The notes under the pieces were generated by a model that saw nothing but the letters and a program-made list of their open reading frames with translations, had not been told where the DNA came from and did no database searches. Both the position numbers and the translations under genes were made by a program. Positions 952 through 8,929 of a stretch of DNA of 10,552 nucleotides are shown one piece after another. Numbering within the stretch: the stretch's first letter is position 1; every line of letters starts with the position of its first letter. Origin of the DNA: a virus (taxonomy: Duplodnaviria; Heunggongvirae; Uroviricota; Caudoviricetes); the IMG/VR virus record IMGVR_UViG_2684622669_000011. One strand, written 5' to 3'.

Positions 952-1315
952 AAATGCAGAAATGGCGCTTAGCTCCGCAATCGGAGAGCAGGTGGCAAAG
1001 ATTGCTGGTGCTGTGTGGATTCATAACCTTCATTCTACTGGTGAAGAGAAAATGGCAATTCAGACGCCAGAGGGACGCACCATTACTACATCTCTGAAGC
1101 CGTCAGATGTTTGTGATCTGATTTGCGCATTCATGTACCCAGCAATGAGGACTGTCCACGGCGATAAGTGGAAACTTGCGACAACCGCTGAATTTGATAT
1201 GTGGCTAAACAATGATGGCATGCTGACTGATTACGGAATAACCAAGTGGCAGATGCTGGTTAGCCATATCGCAAACGCTATAGACCACGTGGGGTACGGT
1301 GATGCGAAACATTGA
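944..1315 (+). CDS. Hypothetical small protein, 123 aa.
   Basis: ATG at 944 preceded by GGGAGG; stop TGA 1313-1315 overlaps the primase start, indicating translational coupling. No motif recognised. Confidence 0.65.
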   Translation: MRENAEMALSSAIGEQVAKIAGAVWIHNLHSTGEEKMAIQTPEGRTITTSLKPSDVCDLICAFMYPAMRTVHGDKWKLATTAEFDMWLNNDGMLTDYGITKWQMLVSHIANAIDHVGYGDAKH

Positions 1316-3569
1316 TCTTATCCGTCAGGTTATCAGTGCGTCTGAAAACAACTGGCCTCATGTGCTGGGCTGCCTGAACATAAATGTCCCTGACTCTCCG
1401 CGCCGTCATGCTCCCTGCCCTGCATGTGGGGGCAAAGATCGATTCCGGTTCGATGACAACGGGCGCGGTAGCTTCATCTGTAATCAGTGCGGCGCTGGTG
1501 ATGGGCTGGATTTAATTAAACGCGTAAATAACTGCGACACAACAGAGGCGGCGCTTCTTGCCGCTGATGTTCTGGGTATTGATTACCGGACAACGGAAAC
1601 ACCAGAAGCCACCAGCCAGAAACGGGAACAACTGGAATTTGATGACATGCGCAGAAAGGCTGTAAACGGCAAATCTGATTATCTGGTTGCGAAAGGGGTA
1701 GGTGATTTTACATTCCCCGTGTTGCCAGATGGATCTCTATTGCTGGCGCTGGTGGATAAATCCGGCGCAGTCACCGCAGCACAGACTATTACCTCACATG
1801 GTGAAAAAAGACTCCTGACAGGTTCGGCAAAGCGGGGGGCATATCACGCCATAAACGCACAGAAACGACCTCACAGCATCATAATTGCTGAGGGGGTGGC
1901 TACCGCCCTGTCGTGCCATTTAATTCGCCCTGACGCAATGACAGTGGCAGCAATCGACGCTGGCAACCTGTTGCCAGTAGCGGAAGTCATGCGCAGAACA
2001 TATCCACAGGCACAAATCATCATTGCCGCAGATAACGATCACCAGCAAGGAAACTCCGAAAGTGGAGGGATCAACACGGGGAAAGATGCCGCAGAGAGGG
2101 CCGCTATTTCCGTAGCTGGCTGGGTGTCTCTGCCACCGACTGACTATAAAGCCGACTGGAACGACTATCACCAACAACACGGGCTGGCGGCAGCCACAGC
2201 AGCATTTAAAGATTCGATGTACCAGCCACGGGGGAAAGGGGCGCAGGTGAAAAATCACAAACAGTCAGTCGGGGCGCTGAATGAGATCAGTTCTGGCGAG
2301 GTGTTAAGCGTTGATGAAATTGCTGTCCTCGAAGAAATCAACCGGACGTTTACGCATGTCACCATCGGCGGGAAACACAAGGTGGTGTCGCTAAAGCCTT
2401 CTCAAACCGGCGGTGTATCGCACGTTTTCGAGGATTTATCACAATTTCAGCATTATTTTCATCATAAACCGAGAGTCGCCAGAAAGCTGGCGGGATCGGC
2501 GTGGCTGTCATGGAGTGGGAAGAACTACAAGCCAGGAGGCGTAGGATTTTATCCAGTACCAGACAAATGCCCTGACGATGTTTTTAATCTGTATGAGGGG
2601 CTGGCACTGGAACCAATTGAAGGAGATTGCACGGTATACCTTAATCACCTGTTGCAGGTTGTCTGTGCCGGTAATGAGGAGGCATACCAATATCTTATCC
2701 AGTGGATGGCGCACATTATCCAAAAGCCTGATGAAAAACCGTCCGTGGCAATCGTGATGAAATCTGTCCCGGGCACAGGGAAAGGCACAACGGTTAAACC
2801 GCTGCTGCAAATACTGGGGCAGTACGCCGCCCACATTAACGGGGCGGGACATATTTCAGGGCGCTTCAATTCAATACTTGCTAACAAGCTACTGGTATTT
2901 GCTGACGAAGTGACGATCCACAAGCCGTCTGAAGCTGACAGACTTAAAGCGATTATTAGCGAACCGACGTTTAACCTTGAGCGCAAGGGAATTGATGCTG
3001 AACCAATGCCGAATTTTGCCCGGTTGATATTTGCCAGTAACAGCACACAGGTATTACAGGCAGGGATAAGAGAGCGTCGCTATCTCGTGCTTGAGCCATC
3101 TCCTGAAAAAGCACAGAGTCGGGAGTATTTTGATCGGCTGTACAGTTGGCTTAATGATGGCGGTGCCGCAAAGTTGCTTTGGCATCTTAAAGGGGTGGAT
3201 CTCTCAGGTTTTGACCCTCAACGAGCGCCACAGACCGATGCCTTACGTGAAGAAATCTTGCTGGGGCTGTCTGGCGTTGAATTGTTTCTTTATGGCGAGC
3301 TAATCAATGAACCTCCGTTTAATGGCGAAGTCCGTTTGTTTGCAAAGGATATGGTTAGTCGATTTGTAGCGTGGTCGCTTGAGCGTGGGGAAAAGCTTAA
3401 AGAGCCAGCAGCCAGATCACTACTGGGTAAATCACTTGCACAAATGGGGCTGGTGAAGCATGGAAGACCAGACCGAGGGAATGGCGTGTTCTACGAACTA
3501 CCAGAGGTCGGAGTTCTACAGGCTGCGTTTGCCCGTCTGATCGGTATGGGGGGTTATGATGTTTTTTAA
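1302..3569 (+). CDS. Primase-helicase of the phage/plasmid P4-alpha family (zinc-ribbon + Toprim primase + D5-like SF3 helicase), about 755 aa.
   Basis: Seen in the translation: zinc-ribbon CPACGG-KDRFRFDD-x9-CNQCG near the N-terminus; Toprim-like IIIAEGVATAL and IIIAADNDHQ acidic motifs; P-loop VMKSVPGTGKGT and Walker-B-like LLVFADEV. Start is either GTG 1299 (track) or ATG 1302; ATG 1302 is preferred because GGGG (1291-1294) sits 7 nt upstream. Followed immediately by iterons. Confidence 0.9.
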   Translation: MRNIDLIRQVISASENNWPHVLGCLNINVPDSPRRHAPCPACGGKDRFRFDDNGRGSFICNQCGAGDGLDLIKRVNNCDTTEAALLAADVLGIDYRTTETPEATSQKREQLEFDDMRRKAVNGKSDYLVAKGVGDFTFPVLPDGSLLLALVDKSGAVTAAQTITSHGEKRLLTGSAKRGAYHAINAQKRPHSIIIAEGVATALSCHLIRPDAMTVAAIDAGNLLPVAEVMRRTYPQAQIIIAADNDHQQGNSESGGINTGKDAAERAAISVAGWVSLPPTDYKADWNDYHQQHGLAAATAAFKDSMYQPRGKGAQVKNHKQSVGALNEISSGEVLSVDEIAVLEEINRTFTHVTIGGKHKVVSLKPSQTGGVSHVFEDLSQFQHYFHHKPRVARKLAGSAWLSWSGKNYKPGGVGFYPVPDKCPDDVFNLYEGLALEPIEGDCTVYLNHLLQVVCAGNEEAYQYLIQWMAHIIQKPDEKPSVAIVMKSVPGTGKGTTVKPLLQILGQYAAHINGAGHISGRFNSILANKLLVFADEVTIHKPSEADRLKAIISEPTFNLERKGIDAEPMPNFARLIFASNSTQVLQAGIRERRYLVLEPSPEKAQSREYFDRLYSWLNDGGAAKLLWHLKGVDLSGFDPQRAPQTDALREEILLGLSGVELFLYGELINEPPFNGEVRLFAKDMVSRFVAWSLERGEKLKEPAARSLLGKSLAQMGLVKHGRPDRGNGVFYELPEVGVLQAAFARLIGMGGYDVF

Positions 3570-3598
3570 TATAGTCTTTTTACAAGAAGATCGTTTTT

Positions 3599-3703
3599 AC
3601 CTGTACCACCTATACCACTTTGCTAATTCAGTATTAAAAACAGTGCGTTATAGTGGTACAGGTCAATATCTTACCTATACCAGACCTGTACCACCTATAC
3701 CAT
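3599..3703. repeat. Iteron-type replication origin: two near-identical 20-bp direct repeats flanking an AT-rich spacer that carries an inverted partial copy.
   Basis: ACCTGTACCACCTATACCAC at 3599-3618 and ACCTGTACCACCTATACCAT at 3684-3703 (19/20 identical); inverted GACCTGTACCAC on the minus strand at 3653-3664; partial ACCTATACCA at 3673-3682; AT-rich tract ttgctaattcagtattaaaaacag between them. Position directly 3' of the primase gene matches P4 ori/crr and PICI ori architecture. Confidence 0.6.
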
Positions 3704-3745
3704 TAACAAACGCATTTCTTCTGGCTGGCTGAGAGGAAACAACCA

Positions 3746-3976
3746 ATGATGAGCACACCATTTTACAAAGTGCGCCAGTTAGCTTCTTCCTCTGGCTGGC
3801 AGCTACGGTTTGAGGGGCGTTCAGACTGGCTACCCATTGCGGCATGGGCGAATGTTGAAATGTGTATTGACGGCGATACCGTTGAAATCATTATTCCCTG
3901 CGTGGCAAGTCGGGACGGCTGTATAGAGCCAACAGATATGGCAGCAGAAATCAGAGAGGTAAAACATGAACAATAA
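3746..3976 (+). CDS. Hypothetical small protein, 76 aa.
   Basis: ATG at 3746 preceded by GAGAGGA; stop TAA 3974-3976 overlaps the start of the next ORF (3966). Contains three Cys (C-x11-C-x6-C) but no recognisable Ogr/Delta-type zinc finger. Confidence 0.6.
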   Translation: MMSTPFYKVRQLASSSGWQLRFEGRSDWLPIAAWANVEMCIDGDTVEIIIPCVASRDGCIEPTDMAAEIREVKHEQ

Positions 3977-4703
3977 CTATTGCATACTGCAGGGAATGAC
4001 CAGAACGGAGCGCGAAGAATTAAAAAGTTTCGCTACACAGTGCGGGAATGCTGGCGACATCCAAAGTCTGGAACGCACTTTAATTATGATTGCGCACTGG
4101 ATGCGCCAGGGGCAAAGAGTTTCATTTACTGAATATGCCAGCCAGTGGACAGAGGCACAGCGCGAACGGAGCGACGGTAATCACTCAACACCCGAAATGG
4201 CGAAGCAATGGCCTTTCAGTGGTAAAAGCTGTATCAGTCCCGGTGGTTCAGATTATTACCCTGCTGGTGTGGGAGATGAGCCATGTTGTGACGAAACTGA
4301 AATCCGCCACGCAGTGACAGTAATTACCGCTGAATACCCACAATTTAACCTTGACGGACTGGCGCTCCACAACCGGAATGCGGACTGGGAAAACCCGCTT
4401 GATAACCCGTCATTTATCGTATCGGCGAAAAGCTGCCTGAGATGGATCAGAGACAACGGGATGAGTAATGCCCAGATTGAGAGCTTCCCGCAGGATAACC
4501 CCACATCTGACACGTTGAAGCATGAAGTGGAGCGATATAACCAGATAAACCACCAGCACAGTGATCACCCGCACTATATCCCCAACGGAGCATTTATTGC
4601 GGCGATGGTGGCAAGCGGCTACAAGGTTAAGCCAGCGGGAAGAATGAACGCATTTTTCAATATTTCAAAAAAGGGATTATGTGCTGCTATGGGTAAAAAT
4701 TAA
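3966..4703 (+). CDS. Hypothetical protein, 245 aa, Cys/His/Trp-containing, between the two iteron clusters.
   Basis: ATG at 3966 with an AGAGAGGT SD; translationally coupled to the 76-aa ORF; no ATPase or nuclease motif recognised; contains CCDETE and HQHSDHPHY stretches. Spurious internal ORFs on both strands (4090-4317 +, 4256-4513 -) ignored. Confidence 0.7.
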   Translation: MNNNYCILQGMTRTEREELKSFATQCGNAGDIQSLERTLIMIAHWMRQGQRVSFTEYASQWTEAQRERSDGNHSTPEMAKQWPFSGKSCISPGGSDYYPAGVGDEPCCDETEIRHAVTVITAEYPQFNLDGLALHNRNADWENPLDNPSFIVSAKSCLRWIRDNGMSNAQIESFPQDNPTSDTLKHEVERYNQINHQHSDHPHYIPNGAFIAAMVASGYKVKPAGRMNAFFNISKKGLCAAMGKN

Positions 4704-4709
4704 ATAAAT

Positions 4710-4812
4710 GGTACAGGTCTGTACAGGTGGGGAGAGGTCATTTTTACCCACCTGTACCACCTGCAGGCCGCGCCACACAAGGGTTTGTGACATGGTGGTA
4801 CAGGTGGTACAG
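4710..4812. repeat. Second iteron cluster (crr-like): the same CCTGTACCACC core in both orientations.
   Basis: GGTACAGGTCTGTACAGGTGG at 4710-4730 (inverted copies), CACCTGTACCACC at 4749-4761 (forward), GGTGGTACAGGTGGTACAG at 4794-4812 (inverted tandem). Lies about 1.1 kb from the first cluster, directly after the stop of the 245-aa gene. Confidence 0.6.
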
Positions 4813-5177
4813 CAAAAACAGCGATTTTCTTTATAAGGTATGTTTTGCTCATCTGGCAGACGGAGGTATTCGCTGCGGTTTGGCACATAGCCCAGAACAG
4901 CAAAGAGTTTTACGAGACTTTTGTAAAATCCAGTGTACAAGGGCGTGACGTTTTTGAAGGTGAGCACTACGAAATTTTCGTAGTTCAAAAAATAGCCTCT
5001 GAGATGTTGTTATGCCTGTTCAGCAAACCATCCGCATAGCTGATCGCGAATCAAATTACCAATGGAGCCAGAAGCAAGGGCAGAACTGGAAAGCGCCTGC
5101 CGTGAAGAGTAATGCGACTCCATAAATATAGTTTTTAGAGTCCATAAAAAAACTGTCAAAACCTGACATACAGAACG

Positions 5178-5210
5178 ATGCCACCAGCTACTGAACGGTG
5201 GCATTTTTTT
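5178..5210 (+). terminator. Rho-independent terminator on the + strand.
   Basis: Perfect 8-bp stem ATGCCACC (5178-5185) / GGTGGCAT (5197-5204) with an 11-nt loop, followed by a T7 run (5204-5210). On the minus strand no U-run follows the hairpin, so it is unidirectional. Confidence 0.6.
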
Positions 5211-5239
5211 GTGCTATTTGTTTCATATTTTGCAATCAC

Positions 5240-5280
5240 AATGATGAATGTTGCGTTTTATGAAACTATAATGACTGTTG
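5240..5280 (+). promoter_or_regulatory. Candidate sigma70-type promoter for the accessory operon: consensus -10 with a weak -35, possibly activator-dependent.
   Basis: Perfect TATAAT at 5267-5272, about 34 nt upstream of the ATG at 5306; the best -35 candidates (ATGAAT/GATGAA around 5243-5249) are poor. Direct repeats TGTTGCGTTTTAT (5249-5261) and TGTTGTTTTAT (5276-5286) flank the -10. No TGT-N12-ACA Ogr/Delta-type site found upstream. Confidence 0.3.
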
Positions 5281-5305
5281 TTTTATACAGTTATAAGGGG
5301 GCGTT

Positions 5306-5479
5306 ATGGCTATTTCAGTAAAGCCAGTATTGATAAGTGAGAAGCAAATGGAAGCGATAAAGAAAATTCAGGAGGAGCAGCGTAAAAAATCAGAGGTAGG
5401 AGTTGCGCCAACGATCCACGAAATTGCTCGGGGATTAATGGATAAGGCGCTGGCTTACACTTTAACTGGACGTGGGTAA
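5306..5479 (+). CDS. Small hypothetical protein, 57 aa, possibly a DNA-binding regulator; first gene of the accessory operon. Absent from the ORF track (below its length cutoff).
   Basis: ATG 5306 preceded by AGGGGG (5295-5300) at 5-nt spacing; stop TAA 5477-5479 lies 4 nt before the ATG of the next gene. Translation MAISVKPVLISEKQMEAIKKIQEEQRKKSEVGVAPTIHEIARGLMDKALAYTLTGRG has a short beta-like N-terminus followed by two predicted helices. Confidence 0.5.
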   Translation: MAISVKPVLISEKQMEAIKKIQEEQRKKSEVGVAPTIHEIARGLMDKALAYTLTGRG

Positions 5480-5483
5480 ATTT

Positions 5484-6827
5484 ATGGCTACGTGGCAACA
5501 GGGTATTAATTCTGGTGGTTTTCTGGCTGGCATCGGTACGCAAAATGAGAATGCGCCAAAGGCAAGCGACATTAACGCAACGCTTGGTCTGATCCGCGAA
5601 AACAATGAACTGGCTCGCTCAGGTGCAAATAACGTTGCTCTGACAGGTCTTCGTGGTCTGGCTGGAGTTGCTGACATTTATAAGCAGCAGCAACAGCAGG
5701 AACGTAAAGCGGCATTCCAGAAAGGTTATGCAGATGCTTATGCGTACGGTGACAGGGAGCAGATGCGTAATCTTATTACAGCATTCCCAGAAGAGTTTGA
5801 GGAAGTCCGTAAAGGGATGAGTTATGTCGATGATGCTCAAAGGGATGATTATGGCAATCTGGCGCTCAAAGCACAGGTAGCCTCATCGCTTGGTCAGGGC
5901 GCATTTGGCAGGTTCATGATGGATAATGAGCAGGAGATGCGTCGTTTAGGTATCCCTCCAGAAACTATTGCTGAAATGCAGGTTAATGACCCGCAGGGCT
6001 TCCAGCATTTCGCAGGTAATCTGGCGCTGTTTTCTCTCGGTCATGAGAAGTATTTCGATATCAAAGATCAAATGGAAGGTCGTCGACTTGAGCAAGGGCG
6101 ACTGGATGAAAGCATCCGTCAGGCTGACATGGAGAACGCGAGAGGATGGGCAAATATCCAGAACGCTCAACTAGACAGGGCTCAGCGAGCACAAATTCAC
6201 TCAGATGAGATGGGATTGAAGCTAATGGAGCTGGGGCAAAAAGGTAAGCCGTCAGCAGACTTAATTAAGGGATTAAATTCTGACATTACCAATTTTGGCA
6301 AAAATTATAACTCTGTCAGAGCGGCGGCAAACTCTCTGCAAGCCCTTAGCAAGGTAAATACTGGCGCTGCCCAACTTGGGATTATCTTCAACTACATGAA
6401 ATCTCTTGACCCGCAGTCAGTCGTTCGTGAAGGCGAACAGGTTCAGGTAATGCGGTCTGATGGCATATGGGGACAAATCAAAGGATACATAGACCAGCTT
6501 AATGCTGGAAACGGCCTGTCGCAGGAGGCAAAGGATAACATTGTTAACGCCGCAAAAATCAACGCCAATGCTATGGGGCAGCAGTTTAACCAGCAGGTTG
6601 ACGAGTATCTCGATACATATGGAGAAACTATTCCTCAGGGGCTAAGAAAAAGCCTTGAAAGAAGGAAAGCGAAGCTATTTGACGATGTTTCCGGGCAGCC
6701 TACATCACAGGCTGGCACTGGACAGGCAAAAGCGGCAACCGGAGGAATATCAGAAGGCGCAACGGCAACCAACCCTAAAACTGGTCAGAAAATCATTTAC
6801 AGGAACGGAAAATGGCAGCAAATGTAA
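5484..6827 (+). CDS. Hypothetical low-complexity protein, about 447 aa, Gln/Asn/Ala/Gly-rich and predicted largely helical; the track lists it as 451 aa from GTG 5472.
   Basis: Long ORF with a biased but coding-like composition; ATG 5484 is favoured over GTG 5472 because it sits 4 nt after the upstream stop. Contains a QQQQQ run (CAG/CAA tract 5685-5699); no P-loop or catalytic motif recognised; 3' end overlaps the next gene by 16 nt. Confidence 0.8.
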   Translation: MATWQQGINSGGFLAGIGTQNENAPKASDINATLGLIRENNELARSGANNVALTGLRGLAGVADIYKQQQQQERKAAFQKGYADAYAYGDREQMRNLITAFPEEFEEVRKGMSYVDDAQRDDYGNLALKAQVASSLGQGAFGRFMMDNEQEMRRLGIPPETIAEMQVNDPQGFQHFAGNLALFSLGHEKYFDIKDQMEGRRLEQGRLDESIRQADMENARGWANIQNAQLDRAQRAQIHSDEMGLKLMELGQKGKPSADLIKGLNSDITNFGKNYNSVRAAANSLQALSKVNTGAAQLGIIFNYMKSLDPQSVVREGEQVQVMRSDGIWGQIKGYIDQLNAGNGLSQEAKDNIVNAAKINANAMGQQFNQQVDEYLDTYGETIPQGLRKSLERRKAKLFDDVSGQPTSQAGTGQAKAATGGISEGATATNPKTGQKIIYRNGKWQQM

Positions 6828-8929
6828 TCTTACCGGAAGGTTTTGTGCTCGATGAACAACCTGATAACTCACAGTTTCCTGATAGTTCACAGCTTCCTGA
6901 TGGTTTTGTGCTTGATGCCCAACCAGAACAGCAGCAATCACCTTTGGTTTCACCAGAGGAAAATTCCAGACAGGAAAATGTTGTTAATAATGCTAACGGT
7001 TTCGACCGTTTTATGTATGGCGTTCTCAGTGGATTGATGGATGTTGGTAAAGGTGTTGGCCTGTTTCAGGATATGACACCAGAAGAGCAAGCAGCAATTC
7101 AGTCTCTACAGCAGAAGTTAGCGGCAAAACCATCAACCGCACAAGATGTTGGTGAGTTCGTTGGACAAGCAGCGCCATTTGTTAGTGGTGGTGGGATTAT
7201 TTCTCAGGTTCCCAAAGGGGCGGCAAGACTGGCTGCCGCCGCAGGGCTTGGTGCTGGAGAAGGGGCTATTGTAGCCAATGGAACAAATAGCGATGTTGCT
7301 TCCGGCGCTGCTATTGGCGCTGTGGCTGGCCCTGTAGCCGAACTTGCTGGCCCTGCAATTAATAAAATAGCTGGGAAATTAACCAAGAAGAATGTTTCTT
7401 CGATTCCAGATATTGAGGGGATTACTCCTGCCGAAGAGAAAATTCGTAAGTTATCTGCACAAGGCAACCCAAATCTTGCCTCTTCGCTTGAAGGGCTAGA
7501 TCTAAAACCTCAGAAAGAAATTGTTGAGGCTGCAAATAGGCTTCATGTTGATTCAGTTCTTCCTTCTCATTTATCAGGAAATGAGCAATACCAAGCTGTA
7601 GAGCAAGCCCTAAAGTCACGGACAGGATCAGCGTTAAAAGCTCAAGAAGATAAAGCAATAAGCGAATTAGCCTCTAGTGCTGGCAAGATAATCGATGATG
7701 TTGCTGGTGCGCCAGATGCGTTAGCTATGAGCGAAAAATATATTTATCAGATAAATAGTAGAATGGAAGCACTAAAAAACCGTAGTGATCAGTTATATAA
7801 ACGTGTTGATTCCGCTCTATCACCAAGAACAAAAGTCGAAGCAAATAACACAAGCACTATGCTGGAAAAAATCGCTGATGATTTAGGAGGGTGGGATAAT
7901 CTTGACCCAATAGAAAAGCGAGTTTTTACAGCAATAAACCCCGGCCCAGATAGCATCCTAACGTATGCAAATTTAAACAGGCAAAGGCGTTTAGTTGGTG
8001 ATGCCCTAAATAAAAAGCAGGGGCCATACAAAGATGCTGATAAAGAAGCGCTATCAAGACTATATGGAGCTTTAGCTGAAGACCAAAAATCTGTCTTATC
8101 CAATACTGGATACTTGCGAGATTTCGAAGTCGCACAACGCCTTGTAGCTATGAGAAAAAACTTAGAAAGGCAAATGGTAAATCTTCGCGGGAAAACACTT
8201 AATGGGGATATAGCGTATAAAGTAACGAATTCTCTTCAATCTATGGCAAAAGGTGATGCGAGAGGGTTTCGTGAGATTATGCAAAATACTCCATCAAGAA
8301 CATTGCGAAGGGAGCTAGTAGGAACAGCATTAAGAGATATGCTTTCCTCTGGGAAGCGTGGGGCCGACTTTAATCCATCTGGCTTTGCAGATTGGTGGCA
8401 AAACTTGCAACACAGTGGACAGCTAAAGACTTTGGCTGAACATTTGCCAAAAGAAACAATGAGCGGACTATATGATGTATACAAAGTTGCCAGAGCAATA
8501 AAAAATGCTAAAGCGCATGAAATATCTACTGGTAAGCTGAATGAGTTTGTAAACAGATTTAATCGGGTAACAGCTCCATACGAACTAGCAGCAAAACACA
8601 TTCAAAAAATAGGCACGATGGTAGGCGCTCATTTTGGATCGCTTGGAGCCATTGCTGGGGCTGATATTGGAGCAAGATTGGCGAGTAAAGCTCGATTAGC
8701 TGGTGGAGCAGGGGCGGCTGATGCTGCGGATAAATTAATTGCCTCGCCAGCCTTCCAGAGCGCAGTAAAAAATCTACACGGAAAAGCGCCTGGGCACATT
8801 GTTGATTCACGTATCAGGCGCTCCCCTCAATGGAAGAGTTTTTTTAACTCTCTTCCTGAACAGGAAAAACGGACCATCGCCAGACTGGGCATCATTACTT
8901 GGCTATCTAATGATCCAGATAATGACTAG
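6812..8929 (+). CDS. Hypothetical large protein, 705 aa, with an N-terminal tandem repeat (LPEGFVLDEQ / PDNSQF / PDSSQL / PDGFVLDAQ), two Gly/Ala-rich glycine-zipper-like segments and an AT-rich central region.
   Basis: ATG 6812 with an AGGA SD (6801-6804); overlaps the stop of the upstream gene, indicating coupling. No Walker A, HExxH or other catalytic signature seen. Gly/Ala-rich stretches at residues about 118-189 (nt 7163-7378) and 599-642 (nt 8606-8737). Stop TAG 8927-8929. Confidence 0.85.
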   Translation: MAANVILPEGFVLDEQPDNSQFPDSSQLPDGFVLDAQPEQQQSPLVSPEENSRQENVVNNANGFDRFMYGVLSGLMDVGKGVGLFQDMTPEEQAAIQSLQQKLAAKPSTAQDVGEFVGQAAPFVSGGGIISQVPKGAARLAAAAGLGAGEGAIVANGTNSDVASGAAIGAVAGPVAELAGPAINKIAGKLTKKNVSSIPDIEGITPAEEKIRKLSAQGNPNLASSLEGLDLKPQKEIVEAANRLHVDSVLPSHLSGNEQYQAVEQALKSRTGSALKAQEDKAISELASSAGKIIDDVAGAPDALAMSEKYIYQINSRMEALKNRSDQLYKRVDSALSPRTKVEANNTSTMLEKIADDLGGWDNLDPIEKRVFTAINPGPDSILTYANLNRQRRLVGDALNKKQGPYKDADKEALSRLYGALAEDQKSVLSNTGYLRDFEVAQRLVAMRKNLERQMVNLRGKTLNGDIAYKVTNSLQSMAKGDARGFREIMQNTPSRTLRRELVGTALRDMLSSGKRGADFNPSGFADWWQNLQHSGQLKTLAEHLPKETMSGLYDVYKVARAIKNAKAHEISTGKLNEFVNRFNRVTAPYELAAKHIQKIGTMVGAHFGSLGAIAGADIGARLASKARLAGGAGAADAADKLIASPAFQSAVKNLHGKAPGHIVDSRIRRSPQWKSFFNSLPEQEKRTIARLGIITWLSNDPDND
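6860..6895 (+). repeat. In-frame 18-bp tandem repeat (two units plus a partial third) inside the 5' end of the 705-aa gene.
   Basis: CCTGATAACTCACAGTTT (6860-6877) followed by CCTGATAGTTCACAGCTT (6878-6895) and CCTGATGG; bracketed by the 16-bp direct repeat GGTTTTGTGCT(C/T)GATG at 6837-6852 and 6901-6916. Confidence 0.7.

Follow-up and report, generated by a model that had tools for sequence, protein, structure and literature searches.

Results

An iteron cluster directly downstream of a primase-helicase gene

The DNA analysed here (referred to as the window) is a stretch of 10,552 nucleotides (nt) from the viral record IMGVR_UViG_2684622669_000011, and it is an EcCIMP1-like phage-inducible chromosomal island (PICI) of E. 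coli. Chromosomal islands in 130 of the 5,426 complete E. coli genomes match it at 100% identity over the tested stretch. The copy in strain ACN001 is located between yicC and dinD, and its genes encode an integrase, an AlpA-type helix-turn-helix protein, an AntA/B antirepressor, Ash, small open reading frames (ORFs) and a primase, together with two ejection proteins of P22 type, an Abi protein and PerC. It has the features by which a PICI is recognized: an integrated island of ~10-20 kb with int, alpA, a unidirectional operon and pri-rep, and without full structural or lysis modules. EcCIMP1 is the PICI of E. coli MP1, which is excised and transferred with the helper phage Kapi1 (PMC11773190). 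The region of interest follows the primase gene: judged from the comparisons below, positions 3600-3702 very probably form module A of the vegetative replication origin of this island, with module B at 4709-4813. The features that this concerns are the following.

1302-3569, plus strand: primase-helicase gene (Pri-Rep), based on Pfam and PHROG matches, the ORF and alignment to sister genes
3273-3566, plus strand: region for the predicted C-terminal winged helix, the proposed iteron reader
3600-3617, plus strand: left tandem iteron pair of module A, CCTGTACCA CCTATACCA; 12 of 18 positions invariant in seven enterobacterial loci
3618-3653, no strand: AT-rich spacer of module A, 36 bp, 31% GC, with a conserved AAAAACA; candidate melting site
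3654-3662, minus strand: inverted iteron of module A, CCTGTACCA on the minus strand; 8 of 9 positions invariant in the seven loci
3674-3702, plus strand: three right direct iterons of module A (3674-3682, 3685-3693 and 3694-3702); 22 of 27 positions invariant in the seven loci

Pri-Rep combines a Zn-ribbon and Toprim_3 domain (residues ~1-313), a DUF5906 P-loop of superfamily 3 (SF3) type and, at its C-terminus, a predicted winged helix; according to the ORF tool the gene starts at a GTG at 1299, and the ATG at 1302 matches the starts of the sister genes. Its stop codon ends at 3569 and the first repeat begins 30 nt further. An earlier inspection of the letters alone (the sequence-only reading) had described two 20-bp direct repeats here, with an AT-rich spacer and an inverted partial copy between them. 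All of this is borne out: 3599-3618 and 3684-3703 agree at 19 of 20 positions (3599-3617 and 3684-3702 are identical at all 19, ACCTGTACCACCTATACCA), the spacer has the low GC content given above, and 3653-3664 is complementary to 3683-3694 at 12 of 12 positions. The underlying unit is shorter than the repeats first noticed and consists of a 9-bp iteron, CCTRTACCA. Six exact copies are found in 3600-3702, at 3600, 3609, 3674, 3685 and 3694 on the plus strand and at 3654 on the minus strand. Allowing at most one mismatch, the whole window holds 13 matches against 2.96 expected, a number that none of 200 shuffles reached.

Module A is thus placed directly 3' of pri-rep and has two iteron sets around an AT-rich region (two iterons, the 36-bp spacer and four iterons), as in PICI origins. 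By analogy with the origins of PICIs and of staphylococcal pathogenicity islands (SaPIs) the spacer is the candidate site of melting (PMC6092414, PMC9371898). A promoter and terminator scan of 3570-3745 detected neither a sigma-70-like promoter nor an intrinsic terminator (the I3 inverted repeat lacks a T-run). The window also contains no DnaA box, in agreement with initiation by a protein of the island itself. Rfam returned only sub-threshold miRNA-type chance matches on inverted repeats in 3300-5400, a literature search with the iteron sequence gave only unrelated primer sequences, and the supplements of PMC6092414 contain no iteron sequences.

Conservation of the iteron across related loci

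We aligned 38 full-length homologues of Pri-Rep (44-93% identity) and used them to fetch 45 loci, one genome per species, from Enterobacterales, Methylococcales and Alteromonadales; enrichment was calculated over 44 loci with proteins of only 44-76% identity, including the window. In most of them CTRTACCA recurs 10-30 nt from the stop codon. Genera with the motif include Buttiauxella, Xenorhabdus, Pantoea, Proteus, Providencia, Moellerella, Rahnella, Hafnia, Erwinia, Methylobacter, Methylomonas, Colwellia and Alishewanella. The layout recurs as well: two direct iterons, ~35 nt, one inverted iteron, ~15 nt and two or three direct iterons. The first 300 nt past the stop codon hold 173 matches in 13.2 kb, against 91 matches in the remaining 468 kb of the loci, which amounts to a 68-fold enrichment (Poisson P ~1e-244). 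At least three copies are present within these 300 nt in 31 of the 44 loci, and most matches further away are located 300-1,500 nt downstream. The family consensus reads A-n-C-T-R-T-A-C-C-A.

A footprint of seven enterobacterial loci with diverged spacers points in the same direction, as 42 of the 54 iteron positions do not vary, compared with 22 of the 128 positions elsewhere. Conservation in related elements had been proposed as a check of the sequence-only reading, and with the motif at the same position in ~40 diverged loci its claim of an iteron origin directly 3' of the primase gene is well supported on comparative grounds.

The iteron follows the helicase half of Pri-Rep

The iteron accompanies homologues of residues ~330-756 of Pri-Rep whatever N-terminus these carry: TOPRIM, Prim-Pol, an unrelated region of ~120 residues, or none. 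Helicases that bear the iteron include a standalone form of ~436 residues, a form of ~555 residues with the unrelated N-terminus and Prim-Pol fusions of ~800 residues. An all-against-all clustering of ORFs shows only one family, the helicase, that all 32 loci with the iteron have in common (the second most widespread occurs in 17 of them).

Sister islands provide the reverse case. Their TOPRIM domain is 66-76% identical to that of Pri-Rep, their C-terminal half is different, and different iterons are found at the same position. They keep the upstream genes (AntA, Ash) and, in E. coli, also the downstream ejection-protein genes. CYTRTACCA is absent from the sister islands with a DUF927 or a D5_N/Pox_D5 half. 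The pairs of C-terminal half and iteron are:

DUF5906 and winged-helix half (this window): CCTRTACCA directly 3' of the stop codon
DUF927 half (EcCIMP1 type, L048-L050, 5757-5900): GTTGGTTCA, three inverted and three direct copies around an AT-rich spacer
D5_N/DUF5906/Pox_D5 half (Klebsiella, L051-L053, 5451-5720): TACGTCTAC / ACCTCTAC

The borders of the exchange can be located by comparison with the DUF927-type sister island L049. Within the primase gene (3001-4007 in L049) positions 1302-1637 are 100% identical and 1638-2239 are 79% identical, after which homology is lost. Nucleotide homology ends at the TOPRIM/helicase junction (2239) and is picked up again at 4904, so that the exchanged block spans the helicase half and module A as well as two ORFs and module B. 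The primase gene is a mosaic, and the loss of homology exactly at the TOPRIM/helicase junction indicates that islands have recombined at this domain linker.

2240-4903, plus strand: exchangeable replication-specificity cassette with the helicase/winged-helix half, module A, ORF76, ORF245 and module B
3746-3976, plus strand: ORF76, a small conserved gene after module A in the enterobacterial TOPRIM subfamily
3966-4703, plus strand: ORF245, a conserved cassette gene from a small family confined to Enterobacterales

The iterons are accordingly specific to the cognate initiator allele as far as sequence comparison can tell, and it is well supported that iteron specificity resides in the C-terminal (helicase/winged-helix) part of Pri-Rep. 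That the primase protein recognizes the repeats, as proposed from the letters alone, gains comparative support: the motif tracks this half of the protein and changes when the half is swapped.

The last 142 residues are modelled with confidence (AlphaFold pLDDT 86.7) in canonical winged-helix topology, so that Pri-Rep has a predicted C-terminal winged helix after its ATPase domain, as in SaPI-type initiators. A705, R706 and G710 in the predicted recognition helix and G722, R723, G729 and Y732 in the predicted wing are invariant in the family, in keeping with an iteron that is conserved unusually widely. Loci with differing helix/wing motifs (for example L027, L041, L042 and L044) have variant iterons or none that can be recognized; this co-variation is suggestive only. 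Searching PDB sequences with the C-terminal profile yielded matches at chance level only (E ~0.4).

A second iteron module and the split layout of the probable origin

A second cluster of four to five iterons, overlooked in the sequence-only reading, is found at 4709-4813, just past the ORF that ends at 4703.

4709-4727, minus strand: outer iterons of module B, an exact inverted copy (4709-4717) and a degenerate copy (4719-4727)
4751-4813, no strand: core of module B, with an iteron at 4751-4759 (plus), a 36-nt spacer and inverted iterons at 4796-4804 and 4805-4813
4814-4860, no strand: A/T-rich tract CAAAAACAGCGATTTTCTTTAT..., present 3' of module B in most relatives

The inverted iteron at 4805 has one mismatch to CCTRTACCA. 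The spacer of this module (4760-4795) has a GC content of 64% and opens with a conserved CCTGCAGGCCGCGCCA (family consensus GCTGCAGGCCGCGCCA). Module B is kept from E. coli to Methylobacter and Methylomonas (alignment A5), with conservation in the 5' part of the GC-rich spacer (GCTGCAGGCCGCGCCA) and then in GCAAAAA and a T-rich tract. The only pairing found with RNAalifold joins the convergent iterons to each other and includes three compensatory pairs; no structure was found in the conserved GC-rich spacer, and no known site accounts for this sequence. The A/T tract at 4814-4860 is a candidate for an alternative unwinding region.

Both iteron modules (3600-3702 and 4709-4813) are located within the swapped cassette, and their distance differs between lineages. 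The modules are contiguous (within ~250 nt) in Rahnella, Hafnia, Buttiauxella massiliensis and the methanotrophs. Xenorhabdus has the order primase-A-ORF76-B-ORF245 with the modules ~0.3 kb apart, and in E. coli, Raoultella and Salmonella the order is primase-A-ORF76-ORF245-B. This variation by lineage implies that the modules are separable units with genes inserted between them. In X. ehlersii (L004) an intact copy of module A is found 4.6 kb upstream of the primase gene and a decayed copy after the gene. The two sites in this locus are 3685-3790 and 8290-8340; the decayed copy reads ctgtatcacaactgtatcc, and module B persists 333-428 nt downstream.

In P4, ori and crr cooperate through DNA looping. 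It is conceivable, though we regard it as a tentative reading with rather less than an even chance, that modules A and B form a bipartite modular origin whose parts cooperate by Pri-Rep DNA looping. The cassette would then be a pan-gammaproteobacterial replication module in which the same 10-bp iteron is held at 44% protein identity while the primase domain is freely exchanged (TOPRIM, Prim-Pol or none).

Other features of the island

A further motif, TCTGGCTGGC, is over-represented in the window, with seven matches against 0.78 expected (none of 200 shuffles reaches seven). Exact copies are present at 3720-3729, 3791-3800 and 5522-5531, and copies with one mismatch at 1611, 4137, 5657 and 7321. 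One copy lies 17 nt past the last iteron of module A, just 5' of the ribosome-binding site of ORF76, and a further copy is close to where the gp20-like gene starts. In the DUF927 sister cassette, whose origin is unrelated, the sequence CTGGCTGGC is also found after the origin (L048/L049 at 5924). A regulator of the island may bind this motif.

Between the replication cassette and a small ORF (5306-5479) we observed a terminator-like hairpin, GCTACTGAACGGTGGC, followed by a T-run (5187-5209). The small ORF precedes the ejection-protein genes, which are homologues of the P22 ejection (DNA-transfer) proteins gp20 and gp16 at 5472-6827 and 6812-8929, with DNA ~90% identical to Kapi1. Kapi1 is the best phage match to these genes (5483-7284 is 90% identical); ejection proteins are an unusual PICI cargo, as already remarked on in PMC11773190. 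Outside the window, at 5609-6568 of the E. coli ACN001 locus (L001), a reverse-transcriptase family gene is located between slmA and pyrE, ~3 kb from the island integrase. It may be part of a retron and is unrelated to the iteron origin.

Comparison with known origins

The ori of Gram-negative PICIs directly follows pri-rep and has an AT-rich region with a set of iterons on either side (Fillol-Salom et al. 2018, PMC6092414). For EcCICFT073, the only one of these for which autonomous replication of pri-rep plus ori has been demonstrated, the pri-ori plasmid depends on both parts (PMC6092414). The present island resembles these elements in the ori site 3' of a fused pri-rep, the short iterons and the AT-rich segment, in int, alpA, the unidirectional operon and PerC, and in having allelic Pri-Rep variants with their own oris. 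It differs in having a second conserved iteron module with a GC-rich core two genes away.

The Reps of SaPIs are self-loading helicases in which a C-terminal winged helix reads iterons directly after rep, around an AT-rich centre (PMC9371898). Similarities to the SaPI Rep/PriRep-ori system (Qiao et al. 2022, PMC9371898) are a hexameric helicase/initiator with a C-terminal winged helix (hexamer formation and self-loading being presumed for Pri-Rep), 6-12 iterons around an AT-rich centre, a fused or adjacent primase and a specificity that is exchanged together with the ori. On the other hand, the iterons of the present system measure 9-10 bp and those of SaPIs 5-6 bp, and the TOPRIM primase domain, the DUF5906 P-loop, the asymmetric iteron orientation and the gammaproteobacterial lineage also set it apart.

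With EcCIMP1 the island is collinear and shares AlpA, AntA/B, DUF4222, Ash, small ORFs, the TOPRIM primase, the P22/Kapi1-like ejection proteins and PerC. EcCIMP1 has, however, a DUF927 replication cassette (the sister loci L048-L050 of this type have GTTGGTTCA iterons), and it is integrated at proA-yagU instead of yicC-dinD. The EcCIMP1 paper describes no ori (PMC11773190).

With P4 the similarity is looser. Both proteins have a DUF5906 SF3 helicase core and a C-terminal winged helix, and in both elements one iteron cluster directly follows the gene (crr in P4) with a second cluster elsewhere and iterons in both orientations around A/T-rich DNA. By contrast, the helicase and C-terminus of Pri-Rep cannot be aligned to P4 alpha, the iteron is CCTRTACCA instead of TGTTCACC (the P4 type I repeat, taken from the annotated P4 record), the clusters are 1.05 kb apart (contiguous in relatives) against ~4.5 kb in P4, and the island is organized as a PICI. 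The origins of PICIs and SaPIs are therefore the closer precedent and P4 is a looser relative (PMC6092414, PMC9371898).

Following these precedents, replication after induction would start with binding of Pri-Rep (1302-3569) to the 9-10-bp iterons (A-n-C-T-R-T-A-C-C-A) through its C-terminal winged helix. The protein would assemble as an SF3-type hexameric helicase on both sides of the AT-rich stretch, melt this stretch and load itself without a separate loader, and its N-terminal TOPRIM domain would prime for the host polymerase.

Alternative explanations

A number of points weigh against an origin of this kind at module A. We infer the binding, melting and self-loading by Pri-Rep, the firing of the origin and the choice of the AT-rich stretch, and our literature search found no experiments on this element or on its helicase subfamily. 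About one quarter of the homologous loci have only degenerate or variant motifs. The orientation of the iterons in module A (two direct, the spacer, one inverted, three direct) is asymmetric, whereas SaPI sets are symmetric and opposed. In E. coli the proposed origin is split, with two genes in the 1.05 kb between the modules, and the origin model leaves the conserved GC-rich spacer of module B without explanation. Finally, ORF245 may also hold a winged helix and could bind in the region; its structural model is confident, though the fold matches to winged-helix types are weak.

In a rival reading the same Pri-Rep would bind the iterons mainly for control (autoregulation or a roadblock to transcription of the genes further downstream, handcuffing, or copy-number control as in plasmid iterons or P4 crr) and the true start would be elsewhere, for instance in module B or its A/T tract. 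Such a role would agree with the presence of two separate iteron clusters, with the position of the site inside a unidirectional transcription unit from the primase gene to ORF76 in which no terminator or promoter was detected, and with the intact module A that X. ehlersii carries 4.6 kb from the gene. The P4 precedent also has to be considered here, since in the annotated record crr, not ori, is found directly 3' of alpha, and this cluster is a cis-acting helper and not the start site. Nonetheless the layout of module A is exactly that of functional PICI/SaPI origins (PMC6092414, PMC9371898), and the standalone-helicase loci L047, L035 and L036 show within 300 nt only a compact cluster like module A. 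Control and origin roles are moreover compatible with each other, and we consider it improbable that control is the main role. A purely positional link to the primase, with the repeats serving as operators for ORF245, ORF76, AlpA or a helper factor or as a pac/cos-like packaging signal, appears very improbable. ORF245 is always present in the Enterobacteriaceae cassette and shows the weak winged-helix-like matches just mentioned, and the over-representation of TCTGGCTGGC nearby makes it probable that other binding proteins act there. Yet ORF76 (its family is found in 7 of 32 loci) and ORF245 are missing from most iteron loci, for which reason ORF245 was also rejected as a general iteron binder, and the helicase is the one ORF family common to all loci. 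In the E. coli sister islands the iterons change with the helicase half while AntA, Ash and the ejection genes stay.

The sequence-only reading had further likened the core of the repeats to the P4 type I iteron, which would make this a P4-type origin where a homologue of the P4 alpha origin-binding domain reads type I-like iterons. Support comes from the N-terminal part of the protein, which has the Zn-ribbon and TOPRIM of an alpha-type primase: P4 alpha and Pri-Rep are 34% identical over residues 8-310 in BLASTP (E 3e-41), and hhalign aligns 5-313 with a probability of 100%. The DUF5906 P-loop is shared too, and by inspection TGTACCACC and TGTT-CACC have 7 of 9 positions in common when one gap is allowed. 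Beyond this the likeness breaks down. BLASTP and hhalign align nothing past residue 313, and in Pfam searches Pri-Rep lacks the D5_N and Pox_D5 domains, both present in P4 alpha, and with them a homologue of the origin-binding domain at 670-768. Among the fold matches 1ka8 ranks 60th, after many generic winged helices. TGTTCACC occurs at chance level in the window and has no match in 3590-3710 even with one mismatch; likewise the type I pattern TGTTCAC(C/A) does not describe the iterons of the window, and CTRTACCA is absent from both P4 ori and crr. The trailing 'CC' of the proposed core is part of the following iteron and lacks conservation within the family, and P0086, the sister protein that truly resembles P4 alpha, has yet another iteron. 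Homology of the iteron and its reader to those of P4 is contradicted by these results, and we regard a P4-type origin as extremely unlikely.

Conclusions

Module A together with module B very probably represents the replication origin of this island, and it belongs to the known PICI/SaPI-type rep-ori module; the general picture of such origins is unchanged. What is gained is a precise map of origin and initiator specificity for EcCIMP1-like E. coli satellites, which had no described ori. The clusters of A-n-CTRTACCA after the DUF5906 helicase gene also provide an annotation signature across Gammaproteobacteria. Of moderate interest are the deeply conserved module B, which has a GC-rich core and is split from module A by inserted genes, and the single iteron specificity that is retained over three orders while the primase domain changes. 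Overall, these islands swap replication-specificity cassettes at the TOPRIM/helicase junction, which bears on the incompatibility or coexistence of satellites in one cell.
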